Assembly: GCA_026770705.1 (NCBI GenBank)
Contig: JANJGN010000005.1
Location: 47,678,001 to 47,742,000 of the forward strand
From: Isurus oxyrinchus
Lineage: Eukaryota
Direction: 5' to 3'
Length of the DNA: 64,000 bases
Both the position numbers and the translations under genes were made by a program. Below are positions 1,390 through 62,177 of the stretch, one piece after another. The stretch's first letter is position 1. The number at the start of each line of letters is the position of its first letter. Under the pieces are notes generated by a model. It did no database searches. It was given only the letters and a program-made list of their open reading frames with translations, and was not told where the DNA came from.

Positions 1390-1570
1390 AAAAACAAAAA
1401 AACTGCGGATACTGGAAATCCAAAACAAAAACAGAATTACCTGGAAAAACTCAGCAGGTCTGGCAGCATCGGCGGAGAAGAAAAGAGTTAACGTTTCGAG
1501 TCCTCATGACCCTTCGACAGAACTAGATGCTGCCAGACCTGCTGCATTTTTCCAGGTAATTCTGTTTTTG
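1390..1570. mobile_element. Penelope pLTR-derived, partly inverted insertion inside CR1
   Basis: Matches the terminus of the Penelope element at 62180-62320. Flanked by a 14 bp TSD with one mismatch: AACCGGTACTTCAT (1376-1389) and AACGGGTACTTCAT (1571-1584). Confidence 0.88.
1485..1524 (-). ncRNA. Minimal type I hammerhead ribozyme motif (CUGUCGA variant)
   Basis: Minus strand reads AGUU CUGUCGA A GGGUC-AUGAG-GACUC GAAAC GUU AACUC. Confidence 0.65.
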
Positions 1571-4432: not shown

Positions 4433-5491
4433 TTTCAAGCTTTTAAAACCAGCTGTTTTAGAATTGTTAACCACCATTTCTAATTTACTGTGGCTTCTAT
4501 TTTACTCTAATCAACCTCATTAAAAAGAACCCACTGCCTAAAGGAAAATTAAGACTACAATAGAACAACGAGGTAGTGATAGCAATTAAAATGGAAGTTA
4601 TCTCATTTCTGGGTTCCTATATCTTGTGAACTCCCTTCTCACCATTTAGAAATTAACAGGGCACCACGTGGGGGATTGGATTCCCTGCTGATCAATGTGG
4701 GTTAACAATACAAGAGCAAACTACTGTGGATGCTGAAAATCTGAAATAAGAACATAGGATATAGGAAATAGGAACACAAGGTTTAGGAGCAGGATTAAGC
4801 CATCTAGCCCATCGAGGCTGCTCCGCCACTCAATAAGATCATGGCTGATACGGTTATGGTCTCAGCTCCACTTTCCTGTCAGTCCCTTAACCCTTGACCC
4901 CCCTTGTTGGTCAAAAATCTGTCTAACTCTGTCTTGAATAAATTCAATGACCCAACTTCCACTGCTCTCTGGGGAAGAGAATTCCACACACTAAAGAATT
5001 TCTCCATATCTCTGTCTTAAAAGGGAGACCTCTTATTCTTAAACTGTGTCCCCTGGTTCTTGTCTCACCCCACAAGTGGAAACATCCTTCCAGTATCTAC
5101 CCATCAAGTCCCTTCAGGATCGTATATGTTTCAATAAGATCACCTCTCATTTTTCTGAACTCCAATGGATTTGGCACAACCTATCCAACCTTTCTTCATA
5201 GGATGAGCCCTTCATCCCAGGAATGAGTTGAGTGAAACTTCTGTGTAGCTTCTAATGCAATTAAAGCTTTTTGTCAAATAAGGAGACCAAACCTGTACAC
5301 AATATTCCAGATGTGGTGTCACCAATGCCCTGTAAAACTTCAGCTGCAATAAAACCTCCCTACTTATATATTTGATTCCCCTTGCAATGAACACCAACAT
5401 TCCATCGCCTTCCTAATCACTTGCTGTACCTGCATACTAACATTTTGTAATTCATGTTCCAGGGCACCTAGATCCCTCTGTACCACCAAGT

Positions 5492-5605
5492 TGGACTCGA
5501 AATCAAGTTCTGTCGAAGGGTCATGAGGACTCGAAACGTCAACTCTTTTCTCCTCCGCCGATGCTGCCAGACCTACTGAGTTTTTCCAGGTAATTCTGTT
5601 TTTGT
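5492..5605 (+). mobile_element. Penelope pLTR fragment inside CR1
   Basis: GTTCTGTCGAAGGGTCATGAGGACTCGAAACGTCAACTC...CCAGGTAATTCTGTTTTTG, near-identical to 30426-30530. Confidence 0.85.
5506..5545 (+). ncRNA. Minimal type I hammerhead ribozyme motif (CUGUCGA variant, GUC cleavage triplet)
   Basis: AGUU CUGUCGA A GGGUC-AUGAG-GACUC GAAAC GUC AACU; stem I AGUU/AACU, stem II 5 bp. Confidence 0.7.
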
Positions 5606-7717
5606 TCTGCAATCTCACTCCATTTAAATAGTATAGCACATTTCCATTCTTCTTGCCAAAGTGGACAAATTCACACTTTCTCACATTATACTCCATCTGC
5701 CAATTTTTTGCCCACTCATTTAACCCGTTTATATCCCTTTGCAGACTCTCTACTTCCTCTTGACAACTTACTTTCCTACTCACCTAGACGTCATCAGCAA
5801 ATTTAGCGACCATACATTTGGTCCCTTCATCCAAATCATTGATGTAGATTGTAAATAGCTGATGCCCCAGCATTGATCCCTAAGGCACTCTGCGGGTCAG
5901 AGCTTGCCAACCCAAAAATTACCCATTTATCCCTACTCTCTGTTTCCTGTTAGCTAACTAATCCTATAGCCATACCAATATGTTACCCCCTCAACAATGT
6001 TTTCTTGTCTTGTATAGTAACTTTTGTTGTGGCACCTTATCACCTGCTGTATCTGCATGCTAACATTTTGTAATTCATGCACCACGACACCTAGATCCCT
6101 CTCGGAAATCCTTTTGGAAATCCAAGTCCACCACGTCTACGGTTGCCATTTTTTCCACCTTGCTTGTTGCTTCCTCAAAAAACTCTAATAAATTAGTTAA
6201 ACATGATTTCCTTTTCACAAACCCATATTGACTCTTCCTAATCAAATTATGATTTTTTAAATATCCTGCAATAACCTCCTTAATAATGGATTCTAGAAAT
6301 TTCCCTATGACAGATGTTAGGCTAACTGGCCTGTTTCCTGCTTTCTGTCTCCCTCCTTTTTTGAATAGAGGTGTTACATTAGCTATTTTCCAATCCACTG
6401 GTATCCTTTCAGAATCTAAGGTATTTTGGAAGATTATAACCAATGCGTCTATTATCTCTGCAGCCATTTCTTTTAAGATTCTAGGATGTAGGCCATCTGG
6501 TCCTGGGGAGTTGAGGGCCTTTAGGTCTAATAGTTTCCCCAGCACCTTTCCCCTACTAAAGATTGTTCTAAGCTCCTCCCTCCCGTTCGCATTTTGATTT
6601 TCAAGAATCTTTTGGAACCTTCCTACATCTTCTACAGTGAAGACAGAGACAAAATACCTGTTGAACGCCTGCACCATTTCCTTGGCTTCCATTATCAATT
6701 CCCCAGACTCACTCTCTGGTGGACCAACAGTAGCTTTATTTATTCTGTTCCTATTTAAATACTTGTGGATACTCTTACCATCTGCTTTTATATTACTAGT
6801 TAGCTTTCTCTCATACTCAACTTTCTCCCTGTTTTTTTTACTCATTCTTTGTTCTTAAAATCTGACCAATCTGCTAAACTACTGCTAATCTTTGCAGATT
6901 TGTACAGTGTTTTTTCAATTTGATGCAATTCTTAACTTCTTTATTCAGCCATGGATGATGCATTCTTCTCAAAGAGCCTTTCTTTCTTACTGAGATAAAC
7001 CTTTGCTGAGAGTTATTAAATATCTCCTTAGAAATCTGCCATTGCATTTCTACTGTCCTGCCTTCTAAACCAGATTCCCAGTTCACCTTAGCTGACTCTA
7101 TTTTCATACCCTTATAATTATCAATATTCAGGTTTAAAACACTAGTCTTAGACCCATACTTCACCCTTTCAAACTGAACATGAAATTCTATCATGTTATG
7201 ACTGCTGACACCTAAAGGCTCCTTTTACCAAGAGGTTATTAATTAATCCTGTCTCATTGCTCATTACAGGTTTAGGATAGCCTGCTCTCAAGTTGGCTCT
7301 ACAACATGCTGCTCTAAGAATTTGTCCCACATACACTCTATGAACTCATTTTCCAGGCTACCTTTGCCAATCTGAGTCATCTAATCTACACGCAGATCAA
7401 AGTCAACCATGATTATTATGGTACCTTTCTTATACACCCCATTTATTTTGTCCTGTAAACTCTGTCCTACAGTGTAACTACTTTTAGTGGGTGTATAAAC
7501 TATTCCCACAAGTGACCTCTTACCTTTCCTATTTCTTATCTCTACTCAAACTGATTCTACATATTGTTCTTTTGAGCTAAGGTCACCTCTCAACCCTGTA
7601 CTAATGACATCCTTAATTAACAGAGCTACCCAACTACCATTTCCTAGTTTCCTATCTTTTTGAAATGTCAAATACCCTTCAAGATTCAGGTCCCAGCCTT
7701 GGGCACCTTGCAACCAT

Positions 7718-8947: not shown

Positions 8948-10404
8948 CATTCCTTTGTAATAGCTAACAGGTCATACATATTTATTTCTAATTGTGCTAA
9001 TAATTCATCCATTTTGTTACAAACGTTCCTCACTTTCAGATACAGAACCTTTAACTTTGTCTTTTTACCATTTTTGCAAGCTCTGGTCTTATCTCCTGGT
9101 ACGCTCTTAAGTATGTACTCTTTGTCCCTTCCTGCCATACTCTGATTATCTTTACCCAAATCTCTACACTGCTCTAGTACCTCATTGTTACCTTTTGATT
9201 TACTACATCTCCTCTCACACAATCCCTTCCCCCCACTATTTAGTTTAAAGTTCTCTCTACTACCCTAGTTATACAATTCGCCAGAACACTGATACCAGCA
9301 CGGTTCAGGTGAAGCTCATCTCAACAGTACAGGTCCCACTTTCCCCAGTACTGGTGCCAGTGCCCCATGCATTTGAGCCACATATTCATCCCTCTAATCT
9401 TATTTGCCCTGTGTCAATTTCCTCTTGCATATGGTAATAATACAGAAATTATTATCTTTGTAGTTCTGCTTTTTAATTTAGCTCCTAGCTGCTCATAATT
9501 CCTAAGCAGAACCTCTTTCATAGTCCTTTCTCTATCATTGGTAATGGATCCTTCCCCTCCCATTGCAAGTTCCTCTCCAGGTCAGTGCAGATGTCCCGAA
9601 ACCTCGCACCAAAAGGCAACCATCTGGACTCACTCTCTCAACTGCAGAGAACTGTATCAATCCCACTGACTATACTGTGCCCTGCTACAATTACATTCCT
9701 ATTAACTCCCCCCACTTAAATGGCTTCCTGTACCACGGTGCCATGGTCAGTTTGCTCATCCATTCTGCAGTCCCCACTTTCATCCCTGCAAGCTGCGATA
9801 ACTTCAAACCTATTGGACAATTGCAAGGATGAGGCTCCTCCACTTCTAACTTCCCAATCCCCTTACCTGCCTCACTCGCAGTCACACCCTCCTGTTTCTG
9901 ACCACTGACCAAATCAGAAGTCTCTAACCTAATGGGCCTGACTGCCTCCTGGAACAAAGTGTCCAGGTAACTTTAACCCTCCCTGATGAATTTCAGGGTC
10001 TGCAGCTCAGACTCCAGCTTGATGACTCTGAGCCAAAACTCCTCAAATGGTTGACACTTTACTAGACGTGTTTGTCCTGGATCACGCCAGCAGAGGGAGC
10101 TCACACATTCTGCAGTCGCAACATGTCACCTGTTTTCTTTATTATGTTTTAATTAATTAATTATTATTTCTTAATTAATTTATATTAATAAACCCTGCTA
10201 CTCACAAAAAGCTTTACTACTTCTAGTGAATCTTACTACTGCTAATCAAATTTTACAATTACCAACAAATTACCCAAGTTTTGAAATATAAAGGAGCAAA
10301 ATACTCAACAGCCAATCACTTACCTGCTTCCCTGCTCCCACACTGCACCGAATTCCCTTATTCACCAAATTCACAGTGATGTCTTCATGCTTGCTAAGAA
10401 AGAC

Positions 10405-11310
10405 ATGAAATGCTGAAAATATTCAGTAGGTCTGGAAACATCTGTGGCGAGAGCAACAGAGGGCTGGATTTTCACTCTCGAGGGGGGTAGTGGGAGTCGG
10501 GAGATTTCCTGGCTCAGCCCACCCACTTCGGGAGAAAATGCCCACAAGGACGGGATTTTCTTTGTTTGGGGGAGGGGGATGCAGCTATGGGCTGGAGTTG
10601 GGCCAGCTGACCTGGGAAAAAGTTCGGAGCAACCACATGGGTTGCTGGGAGCCAAGGTGGGCTGTTTAAAAGGCCTATCCCAGTTACAATAAAAACAGAG
10701 AAGTCCTCCAACCTGACCCCTCATGCAACCTCACTCCTCACACACTCTCCTTGCCTCATCCATGCCACCTCATGCCCCCCACCCAATCCCTGTGGCCCGT
10801 CATGCATCCATGCTGAGGTATGCCCCCCCCCCCCCTCCCAAACAACCTCTATGTCTTCTCATGCCCCTCATGCCAATAGGGGCTGATTGAGGGGCATATC
10901 TTGGCATGGGGGGACATGAGGAGTACCTTTTGTACTTACATTTCAAAAGGTTCCCTCATGCAGTCTATGTTTCAAGACACATCTGAGGTGCTGTGAATCA
11001 TAACTCATTGAAAAGCTGGCCCAACTCCATGAATATTGCAGAGGACTAGGACATGCCAATCCCCACAATGAAACCAGCCAGGTCAGGAGTGCAGGGTGTG
11101 AATTCGCTACCTGAACCAGTCCACACCCTTAAAAGGCCCTGTTGAAAATTGGAAACCCCGAGAATGGGATTGGGAATCCCAGAATTGGGACCTGCCCACT
11201 ATTTTTAAAGGGTTCCCAAGCCATCCCGACTCGGCGAAAATCAAACCCAGAGTTAACATTTCAGGTCGAGGTGAATGATGAATGATGAAAGATCATTGAC
11301 CTCAAACATT
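10405..11310. mobile_element. Old Penelope pLTR fragment split by a MITE
   Basis: AAATGCTGAAAATATTCAGTAGGTCTGGAAACATCTGTGG...CAGA, then the insert, then AGAGTTAACATTTCAGGTC; degenerate hammerhead-like TGATGAAAGATCATTGACCTCAAACATT at about 11283-11310. Confidence 0.6.
10461..11248. mobile_element. Harbinger-type MITE (family B)
   Basis: TIRs GGGCTGGATTTTC / GAAAATCAAACCC and TSD AGA; similar to 32820-33700. Confidence 0.75.
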
Positions 11311-11616
11311 GGGTTGGATTTCACCAGGGACAGGCTGGGGGCAGGGAGGAGCCAAAAAATGGTGAGGGAAGGCTGGGGGTTTGGATCATCCGTCATCCTT
11401 CCTTTCGCCAAGGCATTCCACCTATGGGATTGGCATTTTACCACTGACAAGTGGGCCCTCTGCTGGGTGGGAAGATATCCTGGGGAAACCTGGCACCCTC
11501 TGTGTGGGCTTGGGTGGGTGCGGGGGGGTGGTTTCTAATCAGGCCTATGGAATTATCTCCCTAAGTGGCTGCCCACATGACAACATCACCCCCAGCCTCA
11601 CTGAACTCCTCCCCCA

Positions 11617-11711
11617 CCTGAAGAAGGGTCATATGGACGAAATGTTAACTCTGTTTCTCTCTCCACAGATGTTGCTAGACCTGCTGAGTTTTTCCAGCAT
11701 TTTCTGTTTGT
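11617..11711 (+). mobile_element. Penelope pLTR fragment with degenerate hammerhead (canonical CUGAAGA core), inside a MITE-like stretch starting at 11311
   Basis: CCTGAAGAAGGGTCATATGGACGAAATGTTAACTCTGTTTCTCTCTCCACAGATG...TTTTTCCAGCATTTTCTG. Confidence 0.7.
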
Positions 11712-11799
11712 GTCCCTCCCCCACCTCAGCAGCCTTGTGCATTTAGGTGTGTAAGGAAATTCTTACATGCAGCTGTAGATTCAAATTTAGAAAACATCT

Positions 11800-12165: not shown

Positions 12166-12500
12166 AGGTGTTCAAAGATGGGGGTGGGGGGGGGTGCTCA
12201 GAGCTGGGGGTGGGGATGGAATGGGTGCTTGGATCTGGGGCCGGGAGCGGAGGCGGTGCTCGGAGCTTGAGGTGGAAGTGGAGGAGGTGCTCAGAACTGG
12301 GGGTGGGAGGGGGAAGTTGGGCTCAGAGCTGAGAGCTGGGGGTTGGAGGGGTTGCCCGGATCTGAGCGGGGCAGGGGGAACCTCAGAAGTGGGGAGCCCA
12401 GTAACGAGGACTCCAGGAGTGGGAAGCCCTGAGGTGGGGAGCTGAAGGTGGGGGGCCCAGGACTGATGAGCCCAAGACCGGTGAGCCCAGGCCTCCAGAG
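12166..12500 (+). repeat. G-rich degenerate minisatellite
   Basis: Repeated GGTGCTCAGAGCTGGGGGTGG-like units. Confidence 0.7.
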
Positions 12501-12517
12501 TGGAGCACGAGGCAGCA

Positions 12518-13585
12518 GGAATGGTTGATGGATGCCCTTGCGAATGGAAAGTTGTCTCAAGTGGTGCTCCACAGGACTCAGTGTTGCGACCCTTGCTGTT
12601 TGTGTTATATATTAACGATTTGGATATGAACGTGGGGGGCACGATTGGGAAATTTGCAGATGACACAAAGATTGGCCGAGTAGTGGATGGTGTAGAGCAT
12701 AGCCATAATCTCCAAAATGATATAGATGGGTTGGTGGAGTGGGCGGTAAAGTGGCAGATGGATTTTAATACAGAGAAGTGTGAGGTTATACATTTAGGAA
12801 AGTCAAACAGTTACAGGGATTACACGATAATTGGGAATATACTAAGAGGGGTAGGTGAAGTAAGGGATCTTGGTGAACAAGTACACAGGTCCCTTAACGC
12901 TGCAGTTCAAGTAGGCAAGGTTGTAAAGAAGGCATATGGAATGCTCTCCTTCATTGGCAGAGGTATAGAATATAAAAGTAAGGACATAATGTTGGAATTG
13001 TATAAAACACTGGTGAGGCCACAACTGGAGTATTGTGTGCAGTTCTGGTCACCACATTACAGGAAGGACATAATAGCTCTGGAGAGGGTGCAGGGGTGGT
13101 TTACAAGAATGTTGCCAGGGTTAGAAAAGCGTAGCTACAAGGAGAGATTGGATAGGTTGGGGTTATTTTCCTTAGAACAAAGGAGGCTGAGAGGTGATTT
13201 GACTGAGGTGTACAAAATTATGAGGGGAATAGATAGAGTGGACAGAATAAAATTGTTTCCCTTAGTGGAGAATTGTAGGACCAGGGGACATAGATTCAAG
13301 ATAAGTGGCAGAAGGTTTAGGGGGTAAATGAGGAAGAACTTTTTTAAGCATTGGGTAGTGGTGTCTGGAATTCACTGCCCAAATTGGTGGTAGAGGCAGA
13401 AATTCTAAACTTTTTAAAAAAATATCTGGATCTGCACCTAAAGTGCTGTAAGCTGCAGGGCTATGGGCTGGGTGCAGGAAGGTGGGATTAGGAAGGGCAT
13501 CTGTGTGTCCTCGGGCTGGCATGGACAAGATGGGCTGAATGGCCTTCTTCTGTGCTATAACTTTTCTGTGGTTCTATGTTCTATG
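12518..13585 (+). mobile_element. Young 5'-truncated CR1 LINE
   Basis: Uninterrupted frame 12500-13327 with GAPQDSVL...KFADDTKIG...QFWSPHYRKD; 3' UTR like the copy at 1-3164; tail TTCTATGTTCTATG. Confidence 0.93.
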
Positions 13586-16229: not shown

Positions 16230-16404
16230 CTGGCAACATAAGGTAAGTCATTTCTGGGATCAAAAGTCAAAGTCGATTACTGATGTGAGTATAACTTTTC
16301 ATACTGAAAATGGAGCTCAGCTTACTCCCAGAGGATACGCAAAAGCGCAGTTTTTGGTGTTGAAAAAGTTGGTCATCTTGTACTTTGGGTCAACTTATAG
16401 GCGG

Positions 16405-16690
16405 TGATGTATGGTATGTATGGAATTTCAGAAATCCAAACACTGCTGCCAAAATCTCTCTTTCTATTTTAGCATATCTGGTCTCAGCTGATGTGTTAGA
16501 GCTTTGGATACAACTGCTATTGCTTTTTCCTCTTGTACCAGAGCCACATCCGATCCTTTTGTAGAAGCATCTATGTACAGAGTGACAGGCATCTTTCATC
16601 TGCTTTCTGCTGGAACACATCCTGACACACATCAAGGCCAAAACTTAGATGCAAGAATTTGCACCCAGAGTACAGTGCACAGTTTTGTTC
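16405..16690 (-). mobile_element. Gypsy-type LTR retrotransposon RT/RNase H fragment
   Basis: TSAETRYAKIEREILAAVFGFLKFHTY, the typical RNase H ExxYxxxERELLA motif. Confidence 0.8.
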
Positions 16691-17760: not shown

Positions 17761-18038
17761 ATGTCAAAGAAATTCATCCATTGCACTAAGTGCGGGATCA
17801 GGCATGAAAAACGGCGTTGTACTTGATGGCTACAATGGCAGGTTTTCGCATTGTATCATCTGCTTCCTGCCTCATTAATTCTCATTAATTTTCACATACG
17901 TGAAACACAGTGCATCGTTGGCAGGCGGCCTCCGATTCACCCGCCCCACCATCAGCTCACCGCTTCCTCACACCAGGCACCATATTTAATGTGCAGGTGC
18001 ACACAGCCTTCTCAGTTTCAGCAGTCCGAGACTGCTCC

Positions 18039-19710
18039 ATGAAAGATACGGCCCTGAAATGCAAGAAGGTGGTAGCCCCCAAATTCAGTGATGCCTCATT
18101 GGAGAACCTGTTGGACGTAGTCGAGGTCCACTGCCATGTCCTCTACCCCCACTCTGACCTGAGAAAGTCCAGCAAGATGACCAATTTGGCTTGGGAGGCT
18201 GTGGCAGTGGTGGTCAGTGCCAACACAGTCCAGAAGAGGTCAGCCACCCAATGCTGCAACAGGATGAATGATCTCATCCATGCCTCCAGGGTAAGTTAAC
18301 CATCTCATCACTCAGCTCACACACTCATAAGCCATCATTCACTGGCATCTCACTCATTACCAGCTCAAGAGACATTACCATTTACTCTATCACACACACC
18401 CTCACATCTCCATCTGGGCTCCTCTACTCTGAAGATCACAACCTCATACGTATGGTATAGCTCCCCTCACCAACCACAGATGCCAGCATCCTTATCACCT
18501 GCCCTGGCATGTGACTTACTCATACTCTCTCCATCTGTCTTTATGCAAGACAAATTTGCACACAATAAAAGGAAGAGGTCCCAAACAGGCTGGACATCAG
18601 GCCCTCATAGAGTTCAAGAATCGAACCATTGAGCTGACAGAGAGGATGTTGACTATGCCTGCGCCAACGGTGAGGTTGGTGGTGTACACCCAAGTGAGGA
18701 TCCTCCACCAGCTCATCCCTCAGACAACCACACTGCAAGTGCTTTACCCTGTACTGGAGTCGCCTGCCATGCACTAATTATCTCTTATTTCTCTCATAGG
18801 CACCACTAAAAAGTGCCTAGCAACATCCACAAACCTCATCTCCAGGCCTGAGGACACCACACGTGAGGAACCAGAGGAGAGTACTATAGAAGATCCGCCA
18901 CAGCACTCACCTATACCTTGTACCAGCTCAAAGACACAAACCTCGGTGGGACCTAGTTCTAGAGCAGGCTCAGGGGTCATGATCTGGTGAAGCACAGGAC
19001 ACAATCTGGTCCGCAGCAGACAGAGGCAGGGACATCGAGGTACTTCGCTGGAGGCCATGATTCTGCTGAGTCCAAGTCAGATGGCCAGCCTCAGGACTTG
19101 GTCCTAAGTCAGTTGCTGGGGCTGCAGCGACAGTCAAGGGAGTATCAGGGAGGGATGACAGCTGCATTGCTCAGGTTGTAACAGACAATGGAGGAGTCCG
19201 TCCACCTTCAGTCTGAGGTAATAGCTCCAGCATGCCAACACACTGAGGTCAACACTGGGAGGTTGGCGGCTGCCAGGGAGACCTTGGTCCAGAACATCAA
19301 TCCTGCACTGCTGCAGGAGCAGCACTCCATCACTGTAGCCCTTGGTGGCATCCATCAGTGGCTACTCGAGATGGGAGCAGGGCACTTAGATCCAGCTGCC
19401 ACTTCTCCTCAAGGAGTCAGCCAGGAGCCATCAGGCACCCATAGGGAAGAGGACCAGCAGCTGGACACCCGAGACATTCACCCAGGTGACTCTGGGATTC
19501 TCCAGCCGGTCCAAATCCATTCCGCGTGTGACCCCATCACCTCCAGCTCCACAGGCTGAGGAGGGTGCACCTGCTCCACAGCAGGACACCCAAAGCAGGT
19601 TGGGGCCCTCCAGGTTTTGGCCCTCCAGAGGACGTTAGGCAATGTCATTACATAGAACAGGGCGTAGCACCAAGACACATCGGTAGGGTTAGGAAAGTTA
19701 AAAAGATTTA
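18039..19710 (+). pseudogene. Harbinger Myb/SANT DNA-binding protein gene, spliced, decayed
   Basis: APKFSDASLENLLDVVE...WEAVAVVVSANTVQKRSATQCCNRMNDL; donor AGG|GTAAGT at 18290; acceptors at about 18549 and 18800 (TTTCTCTCATAG); coiled-coil-like LLGLQRQSREYQGGMTAALLRL. Confidence 0.8.
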
Positions 19711-21311: not shown

Positions 21312-24300
21312 CAGTACAATTCGCCATCCTCCTTGTGGAATCTGGTGCCTGTGAGGGCCTCACACACCCGCCTGCCTCATCTGGCCTGTGTTATGGACCC
21401 TTCCCCTGCAGCCTCACCTTCCTCAAACTCATCGCCCTCATCCCCTTCTGGGTCGTCCTCGTCGGAGGGGACATTCAGCTCCTCCATGTCAGTATCTGGC
21501 AAGACTTCCCCATTTGCAGCATCAGGCTGTACAGAGTGCAGCAAGCCATGATGATCCGGGGACTGTACTGGAATGCTATGCCAGATCTATCCAGGTATCG
21601 GAATCGCATCTTTGTAATCTCTATGGTGTGTCCCACCAATGTCTGGGTAGCAATATGAGCCCCATTCTAACCCCTAATGTGTGTCATCAGCCAATTCCTT
21701 TGCAGGTACCCTTTGTCACTGAGGAGCTAGACCTGGATCCTGTGTAGTCCCTCAAACATTCCTGGGATCTGCAATCTACTCAATGTGTATGAGTCGTGGA
21801 TGCTTCCTGAGTATCTGGTGCAAACCTACATGATAAGTTTCCTATGGTCGCAAACCAGCTCTACATTGAGCAAATTGTAGCCTTTCCTGTTTAGGCATTG
21901 GAGTAGCCAAGGAGTTTTTCTAACCGCATGAGAGAGTCGATGACATCCTGCACATGCGGAAACCCAGAAATCTCGGCAGAGACCAGTATTCTGGCGTCCT
22001 AGCTTGCTTGATCTCTGTCAAATTTTTTTTTAATTCATTCGCAGGATGTGGGCTTCGCTGGCTGGGCCAGCGTATATTGTTCATCCCTAGTTGCCCTTGA
22101 GAAGGTGGTGGTAAGCTGCCTTCTTAAAACACTGCAGTCCATGTGGTATAGATACACCCACAGTGCTGTTAGGAAGGGAGTTCCAGGATTTTGACTCAGC
22201 AACACTGAAGGAACAGCAATATATTTCCAAGTCAGGGTGGTGAGTGACTTGGAGGGGAACTTCCAGGTGGTGATGTTCACATTTATCTACTGCCTTTGTC
22301 CTTCTAGATGGTAGTGGTCGTGGGTTTGGAAGGTGCTGTCGAAGGAGCCTTGGTGAATTCCCGCAGTGCATCTTTTGGGTGGTACACACTGCCACTACTG
22401 AGCGTCGGTGGTGGAGGGAGTGAATATTTGAAGATGGGATGCCAATCAAACTGGCTGCTTTGTCCTGGACAGTGTCAAGTATCTAGAGTGTTGTGGGAGC
22501 TGCATTCATCCAGGCAAATGGGGAGTATTCCATCACATGCCTGACTTGTAGATGGTGGACAGGCTTTGAGGAGTCAGGAGGTGGGTTACTCATCTCATGA
22601 TTCCTAGCCTCTGACATGCTCTTGTAGCCACAGTATTTATATGGCTGTCCAGTTCAGTTTCTGGCCAATGGTAATCCCTAGGATGTTGATAGTGGGGATT
22701 TAGTGATGCTAATGCCATTGAATGTCAAGAGGCAATTGTTGGACTCTGTCTTGTTGGAGATGATCATTGTCTAATACTTGTGTGGTGTGAATGTTACTTA
22801 CCACTTGTCAACCCAAGCTTGAATATTGTCCAGATCTTACTGCATTTGGACATGGACTGCTTCAGTATCTGAGGAGTCACGAATGGTGCTGAACATTATG
22901 CAATCATCAGCGAACATCCCCACTTCTGCCCTTATGATGGAAGGAAGGTCATTGATGAAGCAGCTGAAGATGGTTGGACCAAGTACACTACCCTGAGGAG
23001 CCCCTGCATTGATGTCGTGGGGCTGAGATGACTGACCTCCAATAACCACAACCATCTTCCTTTGTGTTAGGTTTGACTCCAACCAGTGGAGAGTTTTCCC
23101 CCTGATTCCCATTGACTCCAGTTTTGCTTGGGCTCCTTGATATCACACTCAGTTAAATGCTGCCTTGATATCAAGGGCAGTCACTCTCACCTCATCTCGG
23201 GAGTTCAGCTCTTTTGTCCATGTTTGAACCAAGGCTGTAATGAGGCCATGAGTTGAGTGGCCCTGGCGGAACCCAAACTGGGCATCAATGAGCAGGTTAT
23301 TGCTAAGTAAGTGCCGCTTGATAGTACTGTTGATGACCCCTACCGTTACTTTACTGCTGATGGGGCGGTAATTGGTCGGGTTGGATTTGTCCCACTTTTT
23401 GTGTACAGAACATACCTGGGTTAATTTTCCACATAGCCAGGCAGATGCCAGTGTTGTAGTTGTACAGGAATAGCTTGCCTAGAGGTGCAGCAAATTCTGG
23501 AGCACAAGCCTTCTGTACTTTTGCTGGAATATTGTCAGGGCCCATAGCCTTGGCAGTATCCAGTGTCTTCAGCTGTTTCTTGATATCACGTGGAGTGAAT
23601 TGAATTGGTTGAAGACTGGTGCTGGGCACCTCCAGAGGAGGCCGAGATGGATAATCCACTCAGCACTTCTGGCTGAAGATTGAAGCATATGGTTCAGCCT
23701 TATCTTTTGCACTGATGTGCTGGGCTCCTTCATCATTGAGGATGGGGATATTTGTGGAGCTTTTTCCTCCAGAGTTGTTTAATAGTCCACCACCATCCAT
23801 TCATGAAGTAGGCGTAATTGTGAGCCTTGACAAAAAGGGCGTCTGTGACATCATGATGCATTTGTGCATGGAAGCCTGAGAGATCTTGCCGAGTTCCTCA
23901 GTGGAACCCTGGAAGGAGCCACTGGAGTAGAAATTCAGCACAGCCGTTACTTTGAGAGCCACTGGCATTGGATGCCTCCCCAGTTCCCATGGCACTAATT
24001 CCTGGTTAATGTAGCAAATGTGACTCAACATATCCCTGGGCATGTGGAGCCATCAGCGACACTGGTTCTTGTTCTTCTGCAGATAAGACATGCGAGTTCT
24101 GTAAACCCTGGGTCTTGCAAGCTACCTATGCATGATGTGTCTATGTGCCTCATCTCCTGCATCGAAGAAGGCCCTGCTGGCTCTTGGTCTTGTGGGCATT
24201 GCTCCTCCCTTTGATGAGCCAGGTGCCTCTATCGCAATCTTCTCCTTCTCTCCTGCTTGTAAGTGACAATACAGGCAGTAATAAATTCATCCTCCATTTC
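21312..24300 (-). pseudogene. Harbinger (HARBI1-like) DDE nuclease, split by a LINE
   Basis: PMPVALKVTAVLNFYSSGSFQ...ISQASMHKCI (23801-24043); GFPHVQDVID, NRKGYNLLNVELVCD, YSGSIHDS and KMRFRYLDRSG...CCTLYS (21500-22020). Confidence 0.85.
22030..23800 (-). mobile_element. CR1/L2-group LINE (second family), 5'-truncated
   Basis: KAMGPDNIP, GAPQGSVLGPTIFSCFINDL...MFADD; 3' end CACCACCTTCTCAAGGGCAA with A-rich tail. Confidence 0.88.
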
Positions 24301-29920: not shown

Positions 29921-30320
29921 CCATAGGTGATGCAGGCATCATTACTGACCGCATCATTTGAGGGGTTGCTCTCTGAATTATTCAATTTGTTAATGGTCCA
30001 AGCATGGCTCTCTAGTACAGAGGTCAAGTTCTGAATTATCTATGTCAGGTCTTGGTCCTTATTGAATTGCCTGTCCGTGGTTCCTTGTCCCTTCTCCAGA
30101 ATTTTCTTAATTTGAGAACTTAACCTTTTGGTCCACTATTGCCAAATCAATCAAATTTACTATTGAGGTCCCTGTGTTAATTGCTGTGACGACATCATTA
30201 ACCAGATTATGTTTCAGTTGACCTTCTCCCTGAACAGGGGGTGCAGCCATGGGCTGCACTCCACCGTTAAACCAAGTTGCCTGTGTTGTCACTTGTTTTA
30301 CTAGGGCTGCATACTATGCT

Positions 30321-30566
30321 AAACAAAAACAGAATTACCTGGAAAAACTCAGCAGGTCTGGCAGCATCGGCGGAGGAGAAAAGCGTTGACGTTTCGAGTC
30401 CTCATGACCCTTCAACAGAACAGAATTCTGTTCTGTTGAAGGGTCATGAGGACTCGAAACGTCAACTCTTTTCTTCTCCGCCGACGCTGCCAGACCTGCT
30501 GAGTTTTTCCAGGTAATTCTGTTTTTGTTTCGGATTTCCAGCATCTGAAGTTTTTTGTTTTTGTCT
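30321..30566. mobile_element. Palindromic Penelope pLTR insertion
   Basis: Arms 30321-30425 and 30426-30530 with 3 mismatches and no spacer; perfect 14 bp TSD CTGCATACTATGCT (30307-30320 and 30567-30580). Confidence 0.92.
30430..30468 (+). ncRNA. Minimal hammerhead ribozyme motif (CUGUUGA variant); mirror copy on the minus strand at about 30383-30421
   Basis: GUU CUGUUGA A GGGUC-AUGAG-GACUC GAAAC GUC AACUC. Confidence 0.7.
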
Positions 30567-30686
30567 CTGCATACTATGCTCATGTCTGAGCACCACTCAG
30601 GCAAGCCAACGTCAGAGATGTTTAGGACGATGGGTACCAGCTCATGGTGTACATTATCATTGAGAGTTTTGTCTGCTTTTATCAAC

Positions 30687-31445: not shown

Positions 31446-32035
31446 GGGCAGAATTCTTATCTCAATGCCATTTTGAGTGGGCGGGCCAATTAAAACCCAC
31501 CCAGTGGCCTGCCCCACAGGAAGCTTCCTGCGTGGGGAGGGTGGAGGGATTCCCCATCTGTCAAAGTGTGCTCCTTCGCACACACACATGAAAGAGCGCA
31601 CTACTCCCTGAAGTAAAGTCCTGTCTCAGGGAGATTCGTGAGATGTAAGTAAACTCTAAAAATTGATAAATATTAAAATTATTAACATGTCCCCCTCATG
31701 TGACAATGTCACACGAGATGGGACATATTAATAATAAACACATAAAATTTATTAAAGTTTTAAAAAACTGACATGAAACTTCATCCTGCTAGTGGATGAA
31801 GTTTCATTAATAATCTGCTGCCCACTGGGGCTCCTGGCCTGCCCACCAGCCTTAAGTTTGGCCGGGCAGGGTGTTTAATAATGTTAATTAGCCTGTCAAT
31901 GGCCTTGATTGGCCATTGTCAGGTCGGCGGGCGGACAGCTGATTTCGCTGTCCGCCCGCCTTTGTGAATATATAAATGGACTGGGATGACGACGGGGTTT
32001 CCTCCCGACATCATCCCCCATCATTTTCCCCTCGG
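31446..32035 (+). mobile_element. Harbinger-type MITE family A, truncated
   Basis: GGGCAGAATT start; same internal palindromes as 33704-34410. Confidence 0.8.
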
Positions 32036-33703: not shown

Positions 33704-34410
33704 GGACAGGATTCTCCCCCCCGTCGGAGGCAAAGTTGAAGGGCCAGTGCGCACAGGCATGCTTCTGATCGGCGCCCCCAATTGGGGGCGGGGTGCCATT
33801 TTACGTGGGTGGGCCAATTAAGGCCCGCTCAGCGTGACGTCAGCTTGGAAAGGCTATGCGCTCCCTGTGCAGCCAGAGGGGAATCCCAAAATCGAGAGTG
33901 CTCTTTCGCGCATGCGCACAGAGAGCATTCTCATCTCGCTGAGGCTAAGTGCAGCCTCAGGGAGATCGGCTCTAAATATAAAAAAGCTAAAAATAGAAAA
34001 ATAAAATTTTCCTAACGTGTCCCCTCATGTGACATTGTCACATGAGTTGGGACATGTCCATAATTTTTATAAAAACTTTATTAAAATTTTTAAAAACTAC
34101 ATGAAACCTCATCCTGCCCGTGGATGAGGTTTCATGTTTTTTCTAATTTGCGCCGGGGCTCCTGGCCTGCCCACCAACCTTAAGGTTGGACGGGCAAGTC
34201 CTTTAATTACTTAATTGACCCTGTCAATGGTCTTAACTGGCCATTGACAGGTCAGCGGGCGCACAGCTGATTTCGCTGGGCCCCCGCCTACCTGAAAATT
34301 TAAATGGGGCGCGGTGACATTGGGAGTTCTATCTGATGTCACCTTGCGTCATTTTACGTGTCGGCGAGCAGGCCCCGCCCCCCCGCTCACCAACACATAA
34401 AATCCTGCCC
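33704..34410 (+). mobile_element. Harbinger-type MITE family A, complete (about 707 bp)
   Basis: TIRs GGACAGGATT / AATCCTGCCC; flanks TTA and TAA. Confidence 0.85.
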
Positions 34411-45366: not shown

Positions 45367-45960
45367 GGGACAGAATATTGCCGTCAGCATGCAGGGGCAG
45401 GCTCGACATGCTGACGCATAAGATGACACGAGATGACATCGGGCATGCGTCCTGATGTCATCGCGCGTTATTTCGATATTGTGTTCAGCGGGCGCGCAGC
45501 TGGAGGTGGCTGTGTGCCCGTTGAACTGTCAAAGGCCTATTAAGGTCATTAAGAAAGTAATTCACCTGATTAACAACGCTGCCCGTCCAACCTTAAGGTT
45601 GGCGGCAGGCGAAGAGCCCAAGCAGCCTTTGTGTTTACCCAGAAACCTCATCCACGGGCGGGATGATGTTTCCTGAAGGTTTTACAAAATGAATAAATAA
45701 GTTGACCCTGTCACATGAGGGAACATGTTTAAATACCTTTTAACTTTAATTTTTAATTTAATTTTTAAAAACTTTTATTGTCTATTCAATCCCCCTGAGG
45801 CAGCTCCGGACCTCAGGGAGATTGCTGCGCTCTTTCACGCACAGGCCCCGACTCTTCCTCATCCCCCCGCCAGCACTGGTAGCATTGGGCGCCAGCAGCC
45901 GCACATTATGCTGGGCAGGCCTTAATTAGCCCACCCACGTAAAATGGTGGCTCGCAGCTG
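45367..45960 (-). mobile_element. MITE family A, partial
   Basis: CCAACCTTAAGGTTGG and GAAACCTCATCCACGGGCGGGATGATGTTTC motifs. Confidence 0.78.
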
Positions 45961-46519
45961 GCTCTTGGAACATATATATTCAAAAACTGTGACACTTCTT
46001 AAACAAAATAGGTTTGAATGGAGGTTTCTCATGCACAGTCATGATAGGCTGGATAGCTTGCTTCTGTGTTGTATTATTCTACGATTAATCTCTCATTAAA
46101 AAGTTGTACGTCTGACAATGCAGCACTGAAATATCAGGCTAAATTATGTAATCAAGTCAGGGAAGGCACTTAAATCCATGTATCCAACACTGAGGAGAGG
46201 GGAAGGGGGAGAGTCGGGGCCTGTGCGAAAGAGCGCAGCAATCGCCCTGAGGCACGGAGCTGCCTCAGGGAGATCGATTAGGCAATACAAGTTTTCAGCA
46301 TGCCTCCCCCATGCTTCCATTATAGCTTTAATATCTACCTGGTCAGGGAGGTGAAACCTAAATCGCTCAGGGATGAGGGACATCAGAAGATTAGAGAAGT
46401 TAGGATTGTTATCTTACAGCAGACATTTCAAGGAAGTGTTCAAAATTATGAAGGGTTTGACAGAGTAAGTTAAGAGAAGCTGTTTCCTCTGGTAAGACGG
46501 TCAGTAACCAGAAGACATA

Positions 46520-47200: not shown

Positions 47201-48439
47201 ATAGAATGTAGAGTAACTGTTGATTTTGACAAGAAACAGCAAGGAATGAGGAGAACTTGTTCATGCATCGAGTTGTTGTAATCTGGAACTCACTGCCTGA
47301 AAGGCTAGGGAAAGCAAATTCAACTGGGGGGGAATGTTACAGCTACCATCAGCATAATTGAAGGAAGAGGGCGGGCTTGTAAAATAAAATGGATGGCCTG
47401 CCTAACACATTCCCGCCCACGCCCAGCCTGTTTCCCATATTACAGTAGGCGGGTTAGGCATCAGGTAGATCACTCATCTTTGAGCTCCTTGAGGCTGACT
47501 GAGGCCCTTAAGTGGCAAATTAATGTCCACTGAAGGGCCTTGTTCTGCCTCCGCCGCTATAATGTGTGCAGCAGGGAAGCAAGGCGGGGAGCCTGGCATC
47601 TTTCACTGCACGAGCTGTTGGTGGACAGGAAGGGGGTATTTCATTGGGGGAGAGAGTTCTCCTGTGCATCCTGCCCAAGATTGTACTCCCACTTTAAGCC
47701 TCCACCCCTAACTCTAAACTGTGTGTCTTCTACTTTCCTGTCTATCCCCTATACCCTTTGACTCCCTTGTCAGTCAAGAATCCATCTAACTCAGCCATAA
47801 AAATATTTAATGACCCACATAGCTTCCACAGCCCTGAAGAAAATTCCACAGAGTAACAAACCTCTGAGAGAAAAAAAAAATCACCTTATCTCGGTCTTAA
47901 CTGGGAGACCCCTTATCTTTAAACCGTGTCCGCTAATTCTTGCCTCTCCCCAAGGGGAAACAGCCTTTCAGCATCCACCCAATTATGTTGGCTGGCAGCT
48001 CTCTCGGGAAGGACACCCTCTCAGATGGAGGCTGAAGTTCCATTCTGAATCAATTAAGGTTGCACCCAGCCTATTACCACTGCAGGGCAGCTGGGTTTCT
48101 GGTCAGCACAGTACTGATGGACTTATTGGTTGGTGGAGTGTGGGGGAGTAGGTGAGCCGGGCCGCCCACCCTCACCCCACCCCCGCTATAAAATCCACCC
48201 CAAGGTAACTTTCAAAAAGGAACATATACTAGGAAGGGAAAATTTTGGAGGGATAGGTAAGAGTGGAGGAGTGGAGCTAATCATAGTTTTTATGATAATG
48301 TTAGCTCCCACAGGGCAGTTGCTGGGGCAAGCTAGGTGGAGGGGTTAAAAATAAAAAAGAACAGGCAAACCTGACACCATCCTGCCTCCAATCCACCCAC
48401 GTCTGGTCTTAACAGAGGCAGACCAAGAGGCAGGTAACT

Positions 48440-48590
48440 GAGATAAAAACAAAATACTGTGGATGCTGGAAATCTGAAACAAAAGCAGAAAATGCTGGAA
48501 AAACTCAGCAGGTCTGACAGTATCTGTGGAGAGAAAAAATAAACAGAGTTAACGTTCTTCAGAGCTCTGAAACGTTAATTCTGTTTTTGT
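48440..48590. mobile_element. Penelope pLTR insertion with short terminal inversion
   Basis: 11 bp TSD GGCAGGTAACT (48429-48439 and 48591-48601); hairpin AAACAGAGTTAACGTT...CAGAGCTCTG...AACGTTAATTCTGTTT. Confidence 0.82.
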
Positions 48591-49000
48591 GGCAGGTAAC
48601 TAATCTACTTTCAGGAGGCAGGCTGGTCAGTAAAATATTTTAAAGAGGTTGTGTGTCCCAATTTTAACTAGTGCTTTATTTTCAACTTCCGCAGGCAAGG
48701 ATTCACAAGCCTTAGGAAACCAACAGATGAAAGGAAGAAAGAAGGGCTAGTAGATGACTTAAGGGCCTTTGTTGCACTCTGTGTGGGCTATGAGGAGCGG
48801 GTGTGCTTCTCCAATCACTGCGCCCCCCCACCCCCAACCCAGTTCCAAGCTCACCTCATAAACACCCTATGATCATCTGGTCGCACCTACACAAAATCCC
48901 TCCAAATGATGTTCAATCTCTGTGCTGTTTGATTCCTGCCACCCCTGTGATATTTTATATCCTCCAACCCCCATGATATTCTATAACCTCCAACCCCAAA

Positions 49001-49790
49001 ATTTTTTTTCATTCACGGGATGTGGGCTTCGCTGGCTGGGCCAGCATTTATTGCTCAGCCCTAATTTCCCTTGAGAAGATGGTGGTGAACTGCCTTCTTG
49101 AACTGCTGCAGTCCATGTGGTGTAGGTACACCCACAGTGCTGTTAGGAAGGGAGTTCCAGGATTTAGACCCAGTGACAGTGAAGGAATGGCGATATATTT
49201 CCAAGTCAGGACGGTGAGTGACTGGAAGGGGAGCTTCCAGGTGGTGGTGTTCCCATCCATCTGCTGCCCTTGTCCTTCTAGATGGTAGTGGTCATGGGTC
49301 TGGAAGGTGCTGTTTAAGGAGCCCTGGTGAATTTCTACAGTGTATCTTGTAGATGGTACACACCGCTGTTCTACTGTGTGTCAGTGGTGGAGGGAATGAC
49401 ACTTTGTGGATGGGATGCCAATCAAGCAGGCTGCTTTGTCATGGACAGTGTCAAGCTTCTGAAATGTTGTGGGAGCGGCACTCACCCAGACAAGTGGGGA
49501 GTATTCCATCCCACTCTTGACTTCTATCACACTCCTGCCCTTTAGATGGTGGACAGGATTTGGGGAGTCAGGAGGTGAGTTATTTGTCCAATATGTTCCA
49601 AGCATCTGACCTGCTCTTGTAGTCACAGTATTTATATGGCTAGTCCAGTTCAGTTTCTGGTCAATGGTAACTCCAAGGATATTGATAGTGGGGGATTCAG
49701 TGATGATAATGCCATTGAACATCAAGGGGTGATGGTTGGATTCTCTCTTGTTGGAGATGGTCATTACCTGGCACTTGTGTGGCACGAATG
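49001..49790 (-). mobile_element. CR1/L2-group LINE 3' part
   Basis: KCQVMTISNKRESNH...ILGVTIDQKLNWTSHI...MEYSPLVW; same family as 22030-23800. Confidence 0.88.
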
Positions 49791-50840
49791 GCCAGAGGAA
49801 ACATCATCCCTGCATCCTGTCTGTCTATTCCTGTCAGAATTTTATATGTTTCAATGAGATCTCCTTAATCTTCTAAATTGCAGTGAATACACCCTAGTCG
49901 GCCCAATCTCTCCTCACAGGACAATCCTGCCATCCCAGGAATCAGTCTGATGAACCTTCGCTTCACTCCCTCTGTGGCAAGTATATTCTTTCTTAGATAA
50001 GGAGAACAAAATTGCACACAATACTCCAGGTGTGGTCTCACCAAGGCCCTGAACAGCTGCAGTAAGACATCCTTGCTCCTGTACTCAAGTCCTCTAGCCA
50101 TAAAGCCCAACACACCATAAGCCTTCCTAACTGCTTGCTGCATCTGCATGCTTGCTTTCAGTGATTGGTGTGCAAGGACACCCAGGTCCCATTGTACATC
50201 AACATTTCCTAATCTATCATCATTTAAATAATACTCTGCCATTCTGTTTTTCATACCAAAATGGATAACTTACACTTATCAATATTATACTGCATCTGCC
50301 ATGTTTTTGCCCACTCATTCATCCTGTCTAAATTGCCTTGAGACCTCTTAACACCCTCCTCATCGCTCACATTCCCACCAAGTTTCATGTCATCAGCAAA
50401 CTTGGAAATATTACATTTGGTTCCCTCATCCAAATCATCGATATATATTGTGAATAGCTGGAGCCCAAGCACTGATCCCTGAGGTACCCCACTAATCATT
50501 CCCTGCCATTTCTAAAAAGGCCCATTTATTCCTACTCTGTCTGCTAGCCAATTCTTAATCCATGCCAATATATTAGCCCCAATCCCATGTGCTTTAATTT
50601 TGCACACTAACCTCTTATGTGGAACTTTATCAAAAACTTTCTGAAAATCCAAATATACCACATCCACTGGTTCTCCGTTATCTATTCTGCTAATTACATC
50701 CTCAAAAGACTCCAGTAGGCTTGTCAAACATGATTTCCCTTTCATGAATCCATGTTGACTTTGTCTAATCATGTTGCTATTTTTTAAGTGTCCTGTTATC
50801 ACATCCTCTATAATAGAATCTAATATTTTTCCTGCTACTG
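49791..50840 (-). mobile_element. CR1 RT fragment
   Basis: SQHGFMKGKSCLT...YLDFQKVFDKVPH; GVPQGSVLG...KFADD; RPHLEYCVQF. Confidence 0.9.
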
Positions 50841-51244
50841 ATGATATTCTATACCCCCCAACCCCCATGATATTCTATACCCTCCCACCTGTGATTTTCC
50901 ATACCCTCCAAAACCCATAAAATTATACATCTTCAACCCCCTTGACCCTGCCCTCACAATATTCTATACGCTCCACCCCCCATGACATTTATACCTCTGA
51001 GATATTCTATATGCCCCCAAAACTGTGATATTCTATACCTTCTACCCCTTGTGATATTCTATATTCCCACCACTGTAATATTCTATACCCTGTACCCATG
51101 ATTTTCTAAACTCTCCAACCCTACGTATTCAATATCCTCCACTCTTATGATAGTCTATACCCTCCACCACTATGATGTTCTATACCCTTCACTCCATTAA
51201 CACATCCAGCCTCAAGATATTCTAGATGCTCCACACCATGATGT

Positions 51245-53910: not shown

Positions 53911-54435
53911 AAAATGTTATACCCTCCTAGCTGTGATATTCAAAACGCTCCACACCTGGGATGATCAGTGTCCCCATCCTGAAGATAGTCTATACCACCC
54001 AAACCCACAATATTCTATACCCCATGACATTCTATTCACTCCAACCCTACAATATACCCTAACCCATGACATTCTATACTTCCCACCCCCCAATATTCGA
54101 TGTCCTCAATCCCCTCCACCCCTTCATTATAAAAATGCTGTAACCCCTGCAATATTCTATACCCTTCAGCCCCACAATATTCTAAACCCTCTCCACCCCA
54201 TGATAGTTAATCCCCTGCAGTCCATTTATATTCTATATTGTCCATCCCTATGATATCCTATACTCTCCACCCTCTCAACATTCTATATGCTGCACCCCCT
54301 GCAATATTCTATACCCTCCAGCCCCACAATATTCTAATCCCCCTCCCACCCCATGATACTCTATATCCTGCAGCCCATTATATTCTATATCCTCCAACTC
54401 CATGATATTCTATAGCTCTACCCTATGATATTCTA

Positions 54436-55012
54436 TCATCATTATTGGCTACCTCTCGCGAGTGAGGATGATTGTCTTCCATGAGTCCGAAGATTGCTGA
54501 AGTGGCCAATTCAGGATCTGCAGATTCTATAGCACGCAGGGCATTTGTTGCCATGTGGGATGTCTGGTCATGTATAATCAGTTTGGGTTGTGGTGTGTTT
54601 TCGCTGCTTTCATTTTTCCTCCTCATTTTGTCGTTGTCATGTCTCAAAATGCAGGAATCCTTCCCACAGACTCTGCCACCATCTGGTTTGATCCAGGGTG
54701 ATGGTCTCCCAGGAATTGATATCCATGTTGCATTTCTTCATGTTGGCTTTCAGCACATCCTTGAAGCATTTCTCCTGTCCTCCTCTGGTGCGTCAGCCCT
54801 GACTGAGCTGGGAGCAGGAGACCTGCTTTGGGAGCCTGTTATATGACATCCGAACTATATGATCAACCCAACAAAGCTGATGAAGGATGATCATGTCCTC
54901 CATGCATGTGGTGCCTACTTGTGAGAGGAATCTAATGTCAATATGTCTCTCCTCCCACTTAATATGCAAGATTTTCCACAGGCAGCGCTGATGATATGAC
55001 TGCAGTCTCATT
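54436..55012 (-). mobile_element. RTE-clade LINE 3' end
   Basis: YHQRCLWKILHIKWEE...QLCWVDHIVRM...RLPKQV; short ATG-repeat tail. Confidence 0.8.
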
Positions 55013-55544: not shown

Positions 55545-55950
55545 GAGTAAAAGCAAAATACTGCGGCTGCTGGAGCTCTGAAATAAAAACAGGAGGTGCC
55601 AGAAAAACTCAACAGGTCTGGCAGCACCTGTGGAGAGAGAAACAAAGTTAACATTTTGAGTCTAATATGACTTCTTCGGAACTGAAGGGAGGTAGAAATG
55701 CAATGTGTTTTAAGCTGTTGAAAAAGGGCATAGGTCAGATAGAACAAAAGGGAAGGTCAGGGATGGGTTAGATGGCAGGGAAGATAAAATACAAAAGATG
55801 TCATGGAACAAAAGGCAAAGGGAGAGGCAATGGTGTAGTAAAGAAACAAATTATAGGTCCAGAGTAGGTGTTTAATAGCAAAATAAATGTCAACTCAGTC
55901 CGAAAGCAAAAACAAGATACAGACTATCACTTGGCAAAAAAAAATTTCAA
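55545..55950 (-). mobile_element. Penelope 3' UTR/pLTR, older copy
   Basis: AAAAGCAAAATACTGCGGCTGCTGG...AAAAACTCAACAGGTCTGGCAGC...; degenerate hammerhead at about 55645-55683. Confidence 0.75.
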
Positions 55951-61962: not shown

Positions 61963-62170
61963 GGCCGAGATCTTCAGATTGGTGAGCGGGGACGGGGGCG
62001 GGGCCCGATCACCGAGGCATAAAATGACACGCGGTGACACCAAACTGGCATCCCAACGTCACCGTGCATCATTTAGATTTTCAGATCGGCGGGCGCGCAG
62101 CCGAGTCAGCTGCACAGCCGCCAAACTGTCAAAGGCCTATTAAGGCCATTTTAATATCAATTAAACTAGT
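61963..62170 (-). mobile_element. MITE family A end, interrupted by Penelope
   Basis: Homologous to 45367-45560 and 46520-46720. Confidence 0.65.
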
Positions 62171-62177
62171 AACAGAG

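Follow-up and report, generated by a model that had tools for sequence, protein, structure and literature searches.

Inverted insertions of Penelope-like elements

An inverted terminal repeat (pLTR) with a tail is drawn as the typical arrangement of Penelope-like elements (PLEs) (Craig 2021, PMC8557442). In Adineta vaga, the elements Pen2, Pen2a and Pen3a have pLTRs inverted head to head, with palindromes at the junctions, a tail of 31 bp and target site duplications (TSDs) of 8-10 bp (Arkhipova 2013, PMC3846280). For the Poseidon element PAc of Anolis carolinensis, both target strands are cleaved and extended in vitro, and two reverse transcriptase (RT) start sites set a tail of 30-40 nt (Frangieh 2024, PMC11167929). 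In the same study, 5' truncation of the RNA shortens the product and hammerhead mutants still insert, ribozyme cleavage being unnecessary for insertion in vitro.

Hammerhead motifs of PLEs can occur as pairs 100-700 bp apart on opposite strands, together with many solo motifs, and the minimal PLE hammerheads are inactive in vitro as monomers (Cervera and de la Pena 2014, PMC4209133). Non-LTR retrozymes consist of head-to-tail arrays with intact type I hammerheads, at least two of the units bearing a complete hammerhead on the same strand, and have a circular RNA (PMC7229834; bioRxiv 10.64898/2026.07.22.740005). In Drosophila, rearranged Penelope copies with long inverted repeats are sources of siRNA (PMC3681739).

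The locus described here lies in a 64,000-nt stretch of Isurus oxyrinchus DNA (contig JANJGN010000005.1; hereafter the window). Judged from its sequence, insertion A at 30307-30580 is a Penelope inverted-pLTR insertion, a kind already described. Like the Adineta insertions, it has a head-to-head pLTR, a junction palindrome, a tail of 30-40 nt at one end, a short TSD and 5' truncation. Unlike them, it comprises only the ~140-nt end of the element, so that the palindrome is the whole insertion, and its TSD is 13-14 bp rather than 8-10 bp (PMC3846280).

As in PAc, a hammerhead motif lies shortly upstream of what would be two tail-defining RT start sites (PMC11167929). The end points here are T-rich, whereas reverse transcription of PAc begins in an AC-rich stem-loop within its ORF; the remnant cysteine linker of a related copy in the window (copy F, below) suggests Neptune rather than Poseidon; and the core of A is altered, unlike that of the PAc hammerhead, which is active with protein. 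Shared with the minimal type I hammerheads of metazoan PLEs are the lack of a real helix III, with a palindromic ACGU at 15.2-16.2, an unpaired base before helix II and a short helix I, while the U at position 6 and the 5-bp helix II set A apart from them (PMC4209133). Like non-LTR retrozymes, A is ORF-less, hammerhead-bearing and PLE pLTR-derived with a TSD of more than 4 bp (PMC7229834), but its two motifs are arranged head to head and have an altered minimal core. Its inverted repeat, like those of the inverted Penelope copies of Drosophila, would yield dsRNA if transcribed. A literature search of limited coverage, which is weak evidence of absence, returned no direct description of palindromic Penelope units in sharks or of Penelope twin priming.

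Architecture of insertion A

30307-30320 (+): left TSD, 14 bp, or 13 bp if one C is element-derived
30321-30425 (-): inverted arm, 105 bp, a tail-less copy of the Penelope-like terminal repeat
30422-30429 (no strand): spacer-less junction, with 4 nt per side that are absent from copies B, D and F
30426-30530 (+): forward arm, 105 bp
30531-30566 (+): unmirrored tail, 36 nt, with the Penelope tail signature
30567-30580 (+): right TSD, identical to the left TSD at 14/14 positions

The arms are complementary at 102 of 105 positions with a spacer of 0 nt, the mismatches being at 30384/30467, 30376/30475 and 30366/30485. An earlier note on this DNA had described two back-to-back 105-bp arms with no spacer and three differences, and its coordinates were reproduced. 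Its unit size of 210 bp was too small: the length between the TSDs is 246 bp, made up of the two 105-bp arms and a 36-nt tail on the forward arm only. That one-sided tail, which the note had missed, is the reason for equating the structure with the published Penelope arrangement. The tail terminates in a T-rich repeat of the arm-end motif, and the outer end of the inverted arm is the inner one of two recurrent 3' end points (see section on end points).

The perfect 14-bp TSD that had been claimed also stands, and is above chance: its word has 2 matches in the window at up to one mismatch, against 0.03 expected, and none of 100 shuffles reached 2 matches. The duplication may be 13 bp, since unit C (below) terminates in the same letter and the first C might be the last base of the element. 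The TSD pair encloses both arms and the tail, in agreement with the single insertion event proposed in the note. With a limit of 400 bp, the window has 31 inverted pairs, of which this palindrome is the longest.

In the folding model, RNA of either strand of A forms a single long hairpin of about -197 kcal/mol, so the idea that read-through RNA would be a near-perfect hairpin hiding the hammerhead motif holds at this level. Any transcript through the unit would be a 105-bp hairpin, for which the role of Dicer or ADAR substrate suggested in the note is hypothetical; a function of the unit's own is not demonstrable.

Related copies in the window

The forward-arm repeat of A is found in 9 insertions in the 64-kb window, labelled A to I, with 12 arms in total. 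Besides A and the tailed copy I, these are:

1380-1584 (-): unit B, of the same family as A, two arms, 10-bp TSD, inserted in a LINE
5507-5606 (+): copy D, a single tail-less arm, 96/100 identical to the forward arm of A
10396-10460 (-): copy H, an old, tail-less single arm starting at about position 41
11608-11726 (+): copy E, a single tail-less arm of an older subfamily, 12-bp TSD
48429-48601 (-): unit C, of the older subfamily, two arms, 11-bp TSD, spacer-less junction
55547-55687 (-): copy G, an older tailed arm that runs upstream into pyrimidine-rich sequence
62170-64000 (-): copy F, a decayed Penelope-like element that runs off the window and ends in a ~140-bp repeat with a tail

TSD lengths are thus 14 bp in A, 10 bp in B, 11 bp in C and 12 bp in E; none was found for D, H and I by a script search, nor for G. 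The inverted arm of unit B is just 45 bp long, covering positions 58-102, and its forward arm begins at 2-5. The reading frame of the host LINE is continuous around this insertion, and no empty site was found among paralogous LINE copies. In unit C the inverted arm is 26 nt long and matches the start of its own forward arm at 21/24 columns; its outer 15 nt match positions 89-103, and the likeliest reading is a full arm that has suffered deletions. Helix II of the hammerhead is missing from both arms of this unit.

Copy E has a canonical CUGAAGA core with damaged helices. Copy H starts 2-3 nt from the predicted hammerhead cut, and is the only copy that could derive from cleaved RNA. At the 5' junction of copy D (5485-5510), the arm is preceded by 10 nt of the element that are out of place and by a short target word present in duplicate, which suggests an abortive template jump. 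Copies B and D sit in decayed LINE RT fragments, which are numerous in the window (1265-3200, 5300-6854, 12485-13327 and 50000-50800). A good match to a 5' splice donor lies at 30513-30518 (+), corresponding to forward positions 88-93. It is mirrored in the inverted arm and is also present in B, D and F, but is absent from the older subfamily; palindrome A is predicted to carry a cryptic splice donor on both strands.

A related Penelope-like element

The coding remnants of copy F comprise an RT with YIDD, a thumb, a remnant cysteine linker and a GIY-YIG-like C-terminus, interrupted by stops and frameshifts. Its terminal repeat, at 62317-62180 on the minus strand, is downstream of the RT/GIY-YIG frame in the same orientation, and is identical to the two A arms at 85/100 positions and at about 81% of 145. 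Because the repeat of copy F follows an RT and GIY-YIG region, the palindrome repeat can be identified as the terminal repeat (pLTR) of an endonuclease-positive PLE. The relationship to Penelope that the earlier note had drawn is borne out by this match to the 3' end of an RT + GIY-YIG element within the window.

In the window's own frame GIY-YIG is matched only weakly (E 0.016, below cut-off), and this identity rests on homologues. The frame of copy F has 112 homologues at E up to 1e-10, mostly annotated with RT and PF26215 and some with GIY-YIG; a rescan of four of them found RVT_1 in 4/4 and GIY-YIG in 3/4. Among the named homologues, those of highest identity (59-60%, over 39-47% of the query) come from a shark, Chiloscyllium punctatum. 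A PDB sequence search with the Penelope frame gave 0 matches.

The top homologues have a C-x4-C-x2-C linker, of which copy F retains GTFPC and a later CPF in different frames, the middle having been lost. By our own count the cysteine pattern is present in 104/112 homologues, although it is unspecific and also catches EN cysteines. A zinc-finger-like cysteine linker between RT and EN marks Neptune and Nematis (Craig 2021, PMC8557442), and the source element probably belongs to the Neptune clade. The parent of the young subfamily is absent from the window, copy F being only 81-85% identical.

End points, tails and junctions

The arms end at two places. One group of six, the inverted arms of A, B and C and the single arms D, E and H, ends at forward positions 102-105; the other six, F, G and I with the forward arms of A, B and C, end at 137-141, leaving 0/12 outside the two clusters. 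Both end points are T-rich repeats, 36 nt apart. In 200,000 draws, five random ends never fell within one 5-nt window; the two end classes were defined post hoc, and ends within T-rich runs are uncertain by about 2 nt. A tail of 30-40 nt is found at one end only (36 nt in A), and in all three two-armed units the inverted arm is tail-less and its partner tailed. The tail-less end point is independent of inversion, since the single-armed copies D, E and H share it. By analogy, the end points fit the scheme of two start sites in Frangieh 2024.

Units A, B and C each consist of head-to-head inverted, 5'-truncated copies, and in 3/3 a single TSD pair encloses both arms. The outer end of the inverted arms is fixed and the inner end varies, from position 1 in A to 58 in B and about 6, with deletions, in C; such a combination is expected for synthesis from the outside inward. 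At the A junction both arms reach position 1, and this junction has one exact match in the window plus one chance-level match with 3 mismatches. The earlier note had proposed that inversion points and TSD lengths be tabulated. Over the 3 units in these 64 kb the TSDs are 14, 10 and 11 bp and the junctions all differ. By the note's own criterion, the differing junctions speak for formation at each insertion rather than for a palindromic family that propagates.

The 5' starts of the arms, read by eye, also recur. In five of the nine insertions (A, B, C, D and E) the forward arm starts at positions 1-8, the 5' edge of helix I, while F and G extend upstream of these positions, H starts at 41 and I at 95. 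In D and E the start of the arm overlaps target sequence, so microhomology may have aided it. A pyrimidine tract at the upstream edge in F and G, terminating in CAG in G, could be a 3' splice site or an initiator. Cervera and de la Pena 2014 (PMC4209133) place the end of the D. virilis Penelope intron at the 5' end of helix I. Candidate causes of the 5' stop that recurs here are an RNA start, a splice boundary or an RT stall.

An altered hammerhead core

30385-30421 (-): minimal type I hammerhead-like motif of the inverted arm, with U at core position 6 (30415)
30430-30466 (+): minimal type I hammerhead-like motif of the forward arm, core at 30433-30439, with U at position 6 (30436)

Positions within the core are given in hammerhead numbering (A6 and so on). 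On each strand of A the motif comprises a 5-bp helix II, GAAA, GUC and a helix I of 3-4 bp; in the forward arm, helix II is at 30441-30455 and cleavage is predicted after 30463. The layout is that of a minimal type I hammerhead (helix II, GAAA, NUH triplet, short helix I and palindromic helix III), but the conserved core CUGAnGA reads CUGUUGA in A, with U replacing the consensus A6. The claim of a hammerhead on each strand is therefore right as to layout and fails at A6. That the junctions adjoin the hammerhead, as had been noted, is confirmed in A, where the junction is just upstream of the core, and in C, where it is 2 nt upstream.

CUGUUGA or CUGUCGA is found in 5/5 arms of A, B, D and F, of which B, D and F are the insertions closest to A, and A6 is retained in C, E and G. 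Being common to all arms of A, B, D and F, the A6-to-U change is best ascribed to inheritance within the subfamily and not to decay at insertion A. In view of this change, ribozyme activity would be lost and the motif of A is probably disabled. A natural A6C hammerhead cleaves at <0.1 per minute, in agreement with earlier mutagenesis of A6 (Perreault 2011, PMC3088659); no cleavage measurement for an A6U hammerhead was found in the same limited literature search. Insertion A has one sense motif per strand, and with the motifs on opposite strands it cannot form the cis dimer needed for activity. The predicted pairing probability of helix II falls from 0.78 in the isolated 45-nt motif to 0.08 when the whole arm is folded, and to 0 for the palindrome. 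Masking of the motif by the antisense arm is thus real in the model, yet probably moot.

Rfam gave no hammerhead match at the gathering score in the 64-kb window. Within 30250-30650, a search at E up to 10 returned 16 matches, none of them to a hammerhead; 12 of those 16 were miRNA hairpin models, all below gathering. Two other ideas were discarded. Ribozyme cleavage did not make the A junction, the predicted cut being 38 nt into the arm. Copy F lacks a compensatory change in helix I, which is only 2 bp long there.

How the palindrome may have formed

We are confident that A arose de novo as a Penelope inverted insertion, whatever the route. Among the routes, our moderate preference is for dual priming, in which both nicked target strands prime, one per start site, and the two cDNAs are joined head to head. 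The insertion would have been made in trans by an endonuclease-positive PLE, with only the ~140-nt terminal repeat as cargo. Its GIY-YIG nuclease, presumed from the type of element, would make a staggered cut 13-14 bp apart, the distance seen in the TSD. Each nicked strand would then prime RT at one of two fixed internal RNA sites ~36 nt apart, one site yielding the tailed forward arm and the other the tail-less inverted arm, with a pairing of one site per strand that we infer; priming on both strands and at two sites has an in vitro precedent in the anole element (PMC11167929). Both cDNAs would run to a common 5' stop just upstream of helix I, as the clustering of 5' ends suggests, whatever its cause, and be joined there without a spacer. 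Ribozyme cleavage would play no part, in keeping with the position of the junction and with the activity loss expected from the A6 change. Dual priming would explain why the outer ends are fixed, why the tail is one-sided and why the inner ends vary. The arm mismatch at position 50 divides the arms of A as B and D are divided, which weakly suggests two templates (chance about 5% by hand estimate). Only 3 two-armed units in 64 kb underlie this comparison, and no two-armed product is shown in the in vitro work consulted.

Fold-back, which would also be de novo, is the less likely route, though a serious one. Here a single cDNA would run from the tail to the 5' stop, copy itself back to the tail boundary and join the target. 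Junction palindromes are interpreted as self-priming in Adineta (Arkhipova 2013, PMC3846280), and the junction bases of A and the loss of helix II in C are both symmetric. Both arms of A share 4 junction bases that are absent from B, D and F, and such shared central oddities of A and C are simpler under fold-back or a single RNA template, which counts against dual priming. On the other hand, fold-back does not account for the exact coincidence between the stops of the inverted arms and the ends of the tail-less copies D, E and H, in B it would need a 55-nt loop-out with 1-2 nt of homology, and the arm difference at position 50 matches the polymorphism between B and D. The retrozyme-like option of the earlier note, a non-autonomous family transcribed and retrotransposed as whole palindromes, is improbable. 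The tail is predicted to stay unpaired in the plus-strand transcript and could in principle be primed, the A and C junctions are both just upstream of the core, and a 64-kb window leaves room for copies elsewhere. Yet the junctions differ in 3/3 two-armed units, that of A having a single exact match; the motif is unable to fold in the modelled hairpin and has an altered core; and no tandem array of the unit is present among the 22 tandem-repeat rows of the window. For this want of head-to-tail units, and with one sense motif per strand, an identity of A as a retrozyme was rejected. A search of bacterial and archaeal genomes with the 27-nt family motif found 0 loci, which is uninformative for a shark host.

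Very little speaks for a later origin, either by DNA repair or replication slippage of a one-armed copy or by two separate head-to-head insertions. The arms do differ at 3/105 sites and the deletions in C are typical of unstable palindromes, but one intact TSD surrounds both arms in 3/3 units, and in each of them the tail boundary is where the inverted arm stops. Spacer-less palindromes are also a recognised class of assembly or library fold-back artefact. We consider this least credible of all for A, given the 3 arm differences, a mirror that stops at the element boundary, a tail on one side, the enclosing 14-bp TSD and two further units (B and C) of the same design.

Host context and neighbouring repeats

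The earlier note had placed the unit in an intron of a putative minus-strand gene. Splice-site scans, with approximate splice and amino-acid weights, and Pfam searches of ORFs found no host-gene exon. Of the 461 non-repetitive ORFs (stop to stop, 42 aa or longer), 300 went into the Pfam scan (208/219 minus, 92/242 plus), omitting 11 minus ORFs that overlap retroelements or are of low complexity and the plus ORFs outside 18.4-40.5 kb, and no match above the curated cut-off was obtained among the 300. Short or divergent exons would escape an ORF scan, and the window could sit in one long intron. The best coding candidates in the window are pieces of LINE, LTR-type RNase H and Harbinger-type elements. 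A Myb/SANT-like domain (Myb_DNA-bind_5, E 5.7e-06) at 17904-18299 (+) and a DDE_Tnp_4 fragment (E 0.0017) at 21380-21666 (-) form a pairing at 17.9-21.7 kb that we take to be a DNA transposon of Harbinger type, now decayed. The putative gene may have been read from its pieces, which look spliced. An RNase H-like fragment of LTR type is found at 16393-16644 (-) (E 0.00073, below cut-off).

The window contains further repeats. Short inverted repeats with arms of 14-25 bp and 7-nt spacers, at 31773-31807, 31926-31960, 34090-34146 and 45423-45471, sit inside repeated GC-richer elements. MITE-like elements at 45768-46295 and 58077-58483 have terminal inverted repeats of 74 bp and 65 bp, and degenerate minisatellite arrays of a related 25-26 bp unit occupy 48920-51192 and 53989-54436.

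Significance

The locus itself is minor: the repeat is common, with 9 fragments in 64 kb of which this is one, and the structure is a published one. Two features deserve attention, namely the 5' stop that recurs at helix I across insertions and the A6-to-U change shared by the whole subfamily. How PLEs make inverted ends and tails is described as still unresolved (Craig 2021, PMC8557442). If the density in the window holds genome-wide, there would be many natural junctions on which dual priming could be compared with fold-back. The two-armed units would also help to locate the 5' end of the RNA, and to ask whether mobility persisted in a subfamily whose hammerhead core is altered.

Two bolder readings may be set out. 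One, which we think improbable, is that the spacer-less palindrome is itself mobile, a dead-hammerhead Penelope derivative whose 105-bp hairpin RNA would be re-primed at its free tail by the Penelope protein and would seed a genome of shark type with many sources of dsRNA. The other, offered tentatively, sees the two-armed units as stereotyped run-off products, bounded by two fixed start sites on one side and a single fixed 5' stop on the other. If the latter is true, genome-wide variants would show whether one or two RNAs template Penelope insertion. An A6-to-U subfamily that had continued to move, if true, would be in vivo evidence for a dispensable ribozyme.
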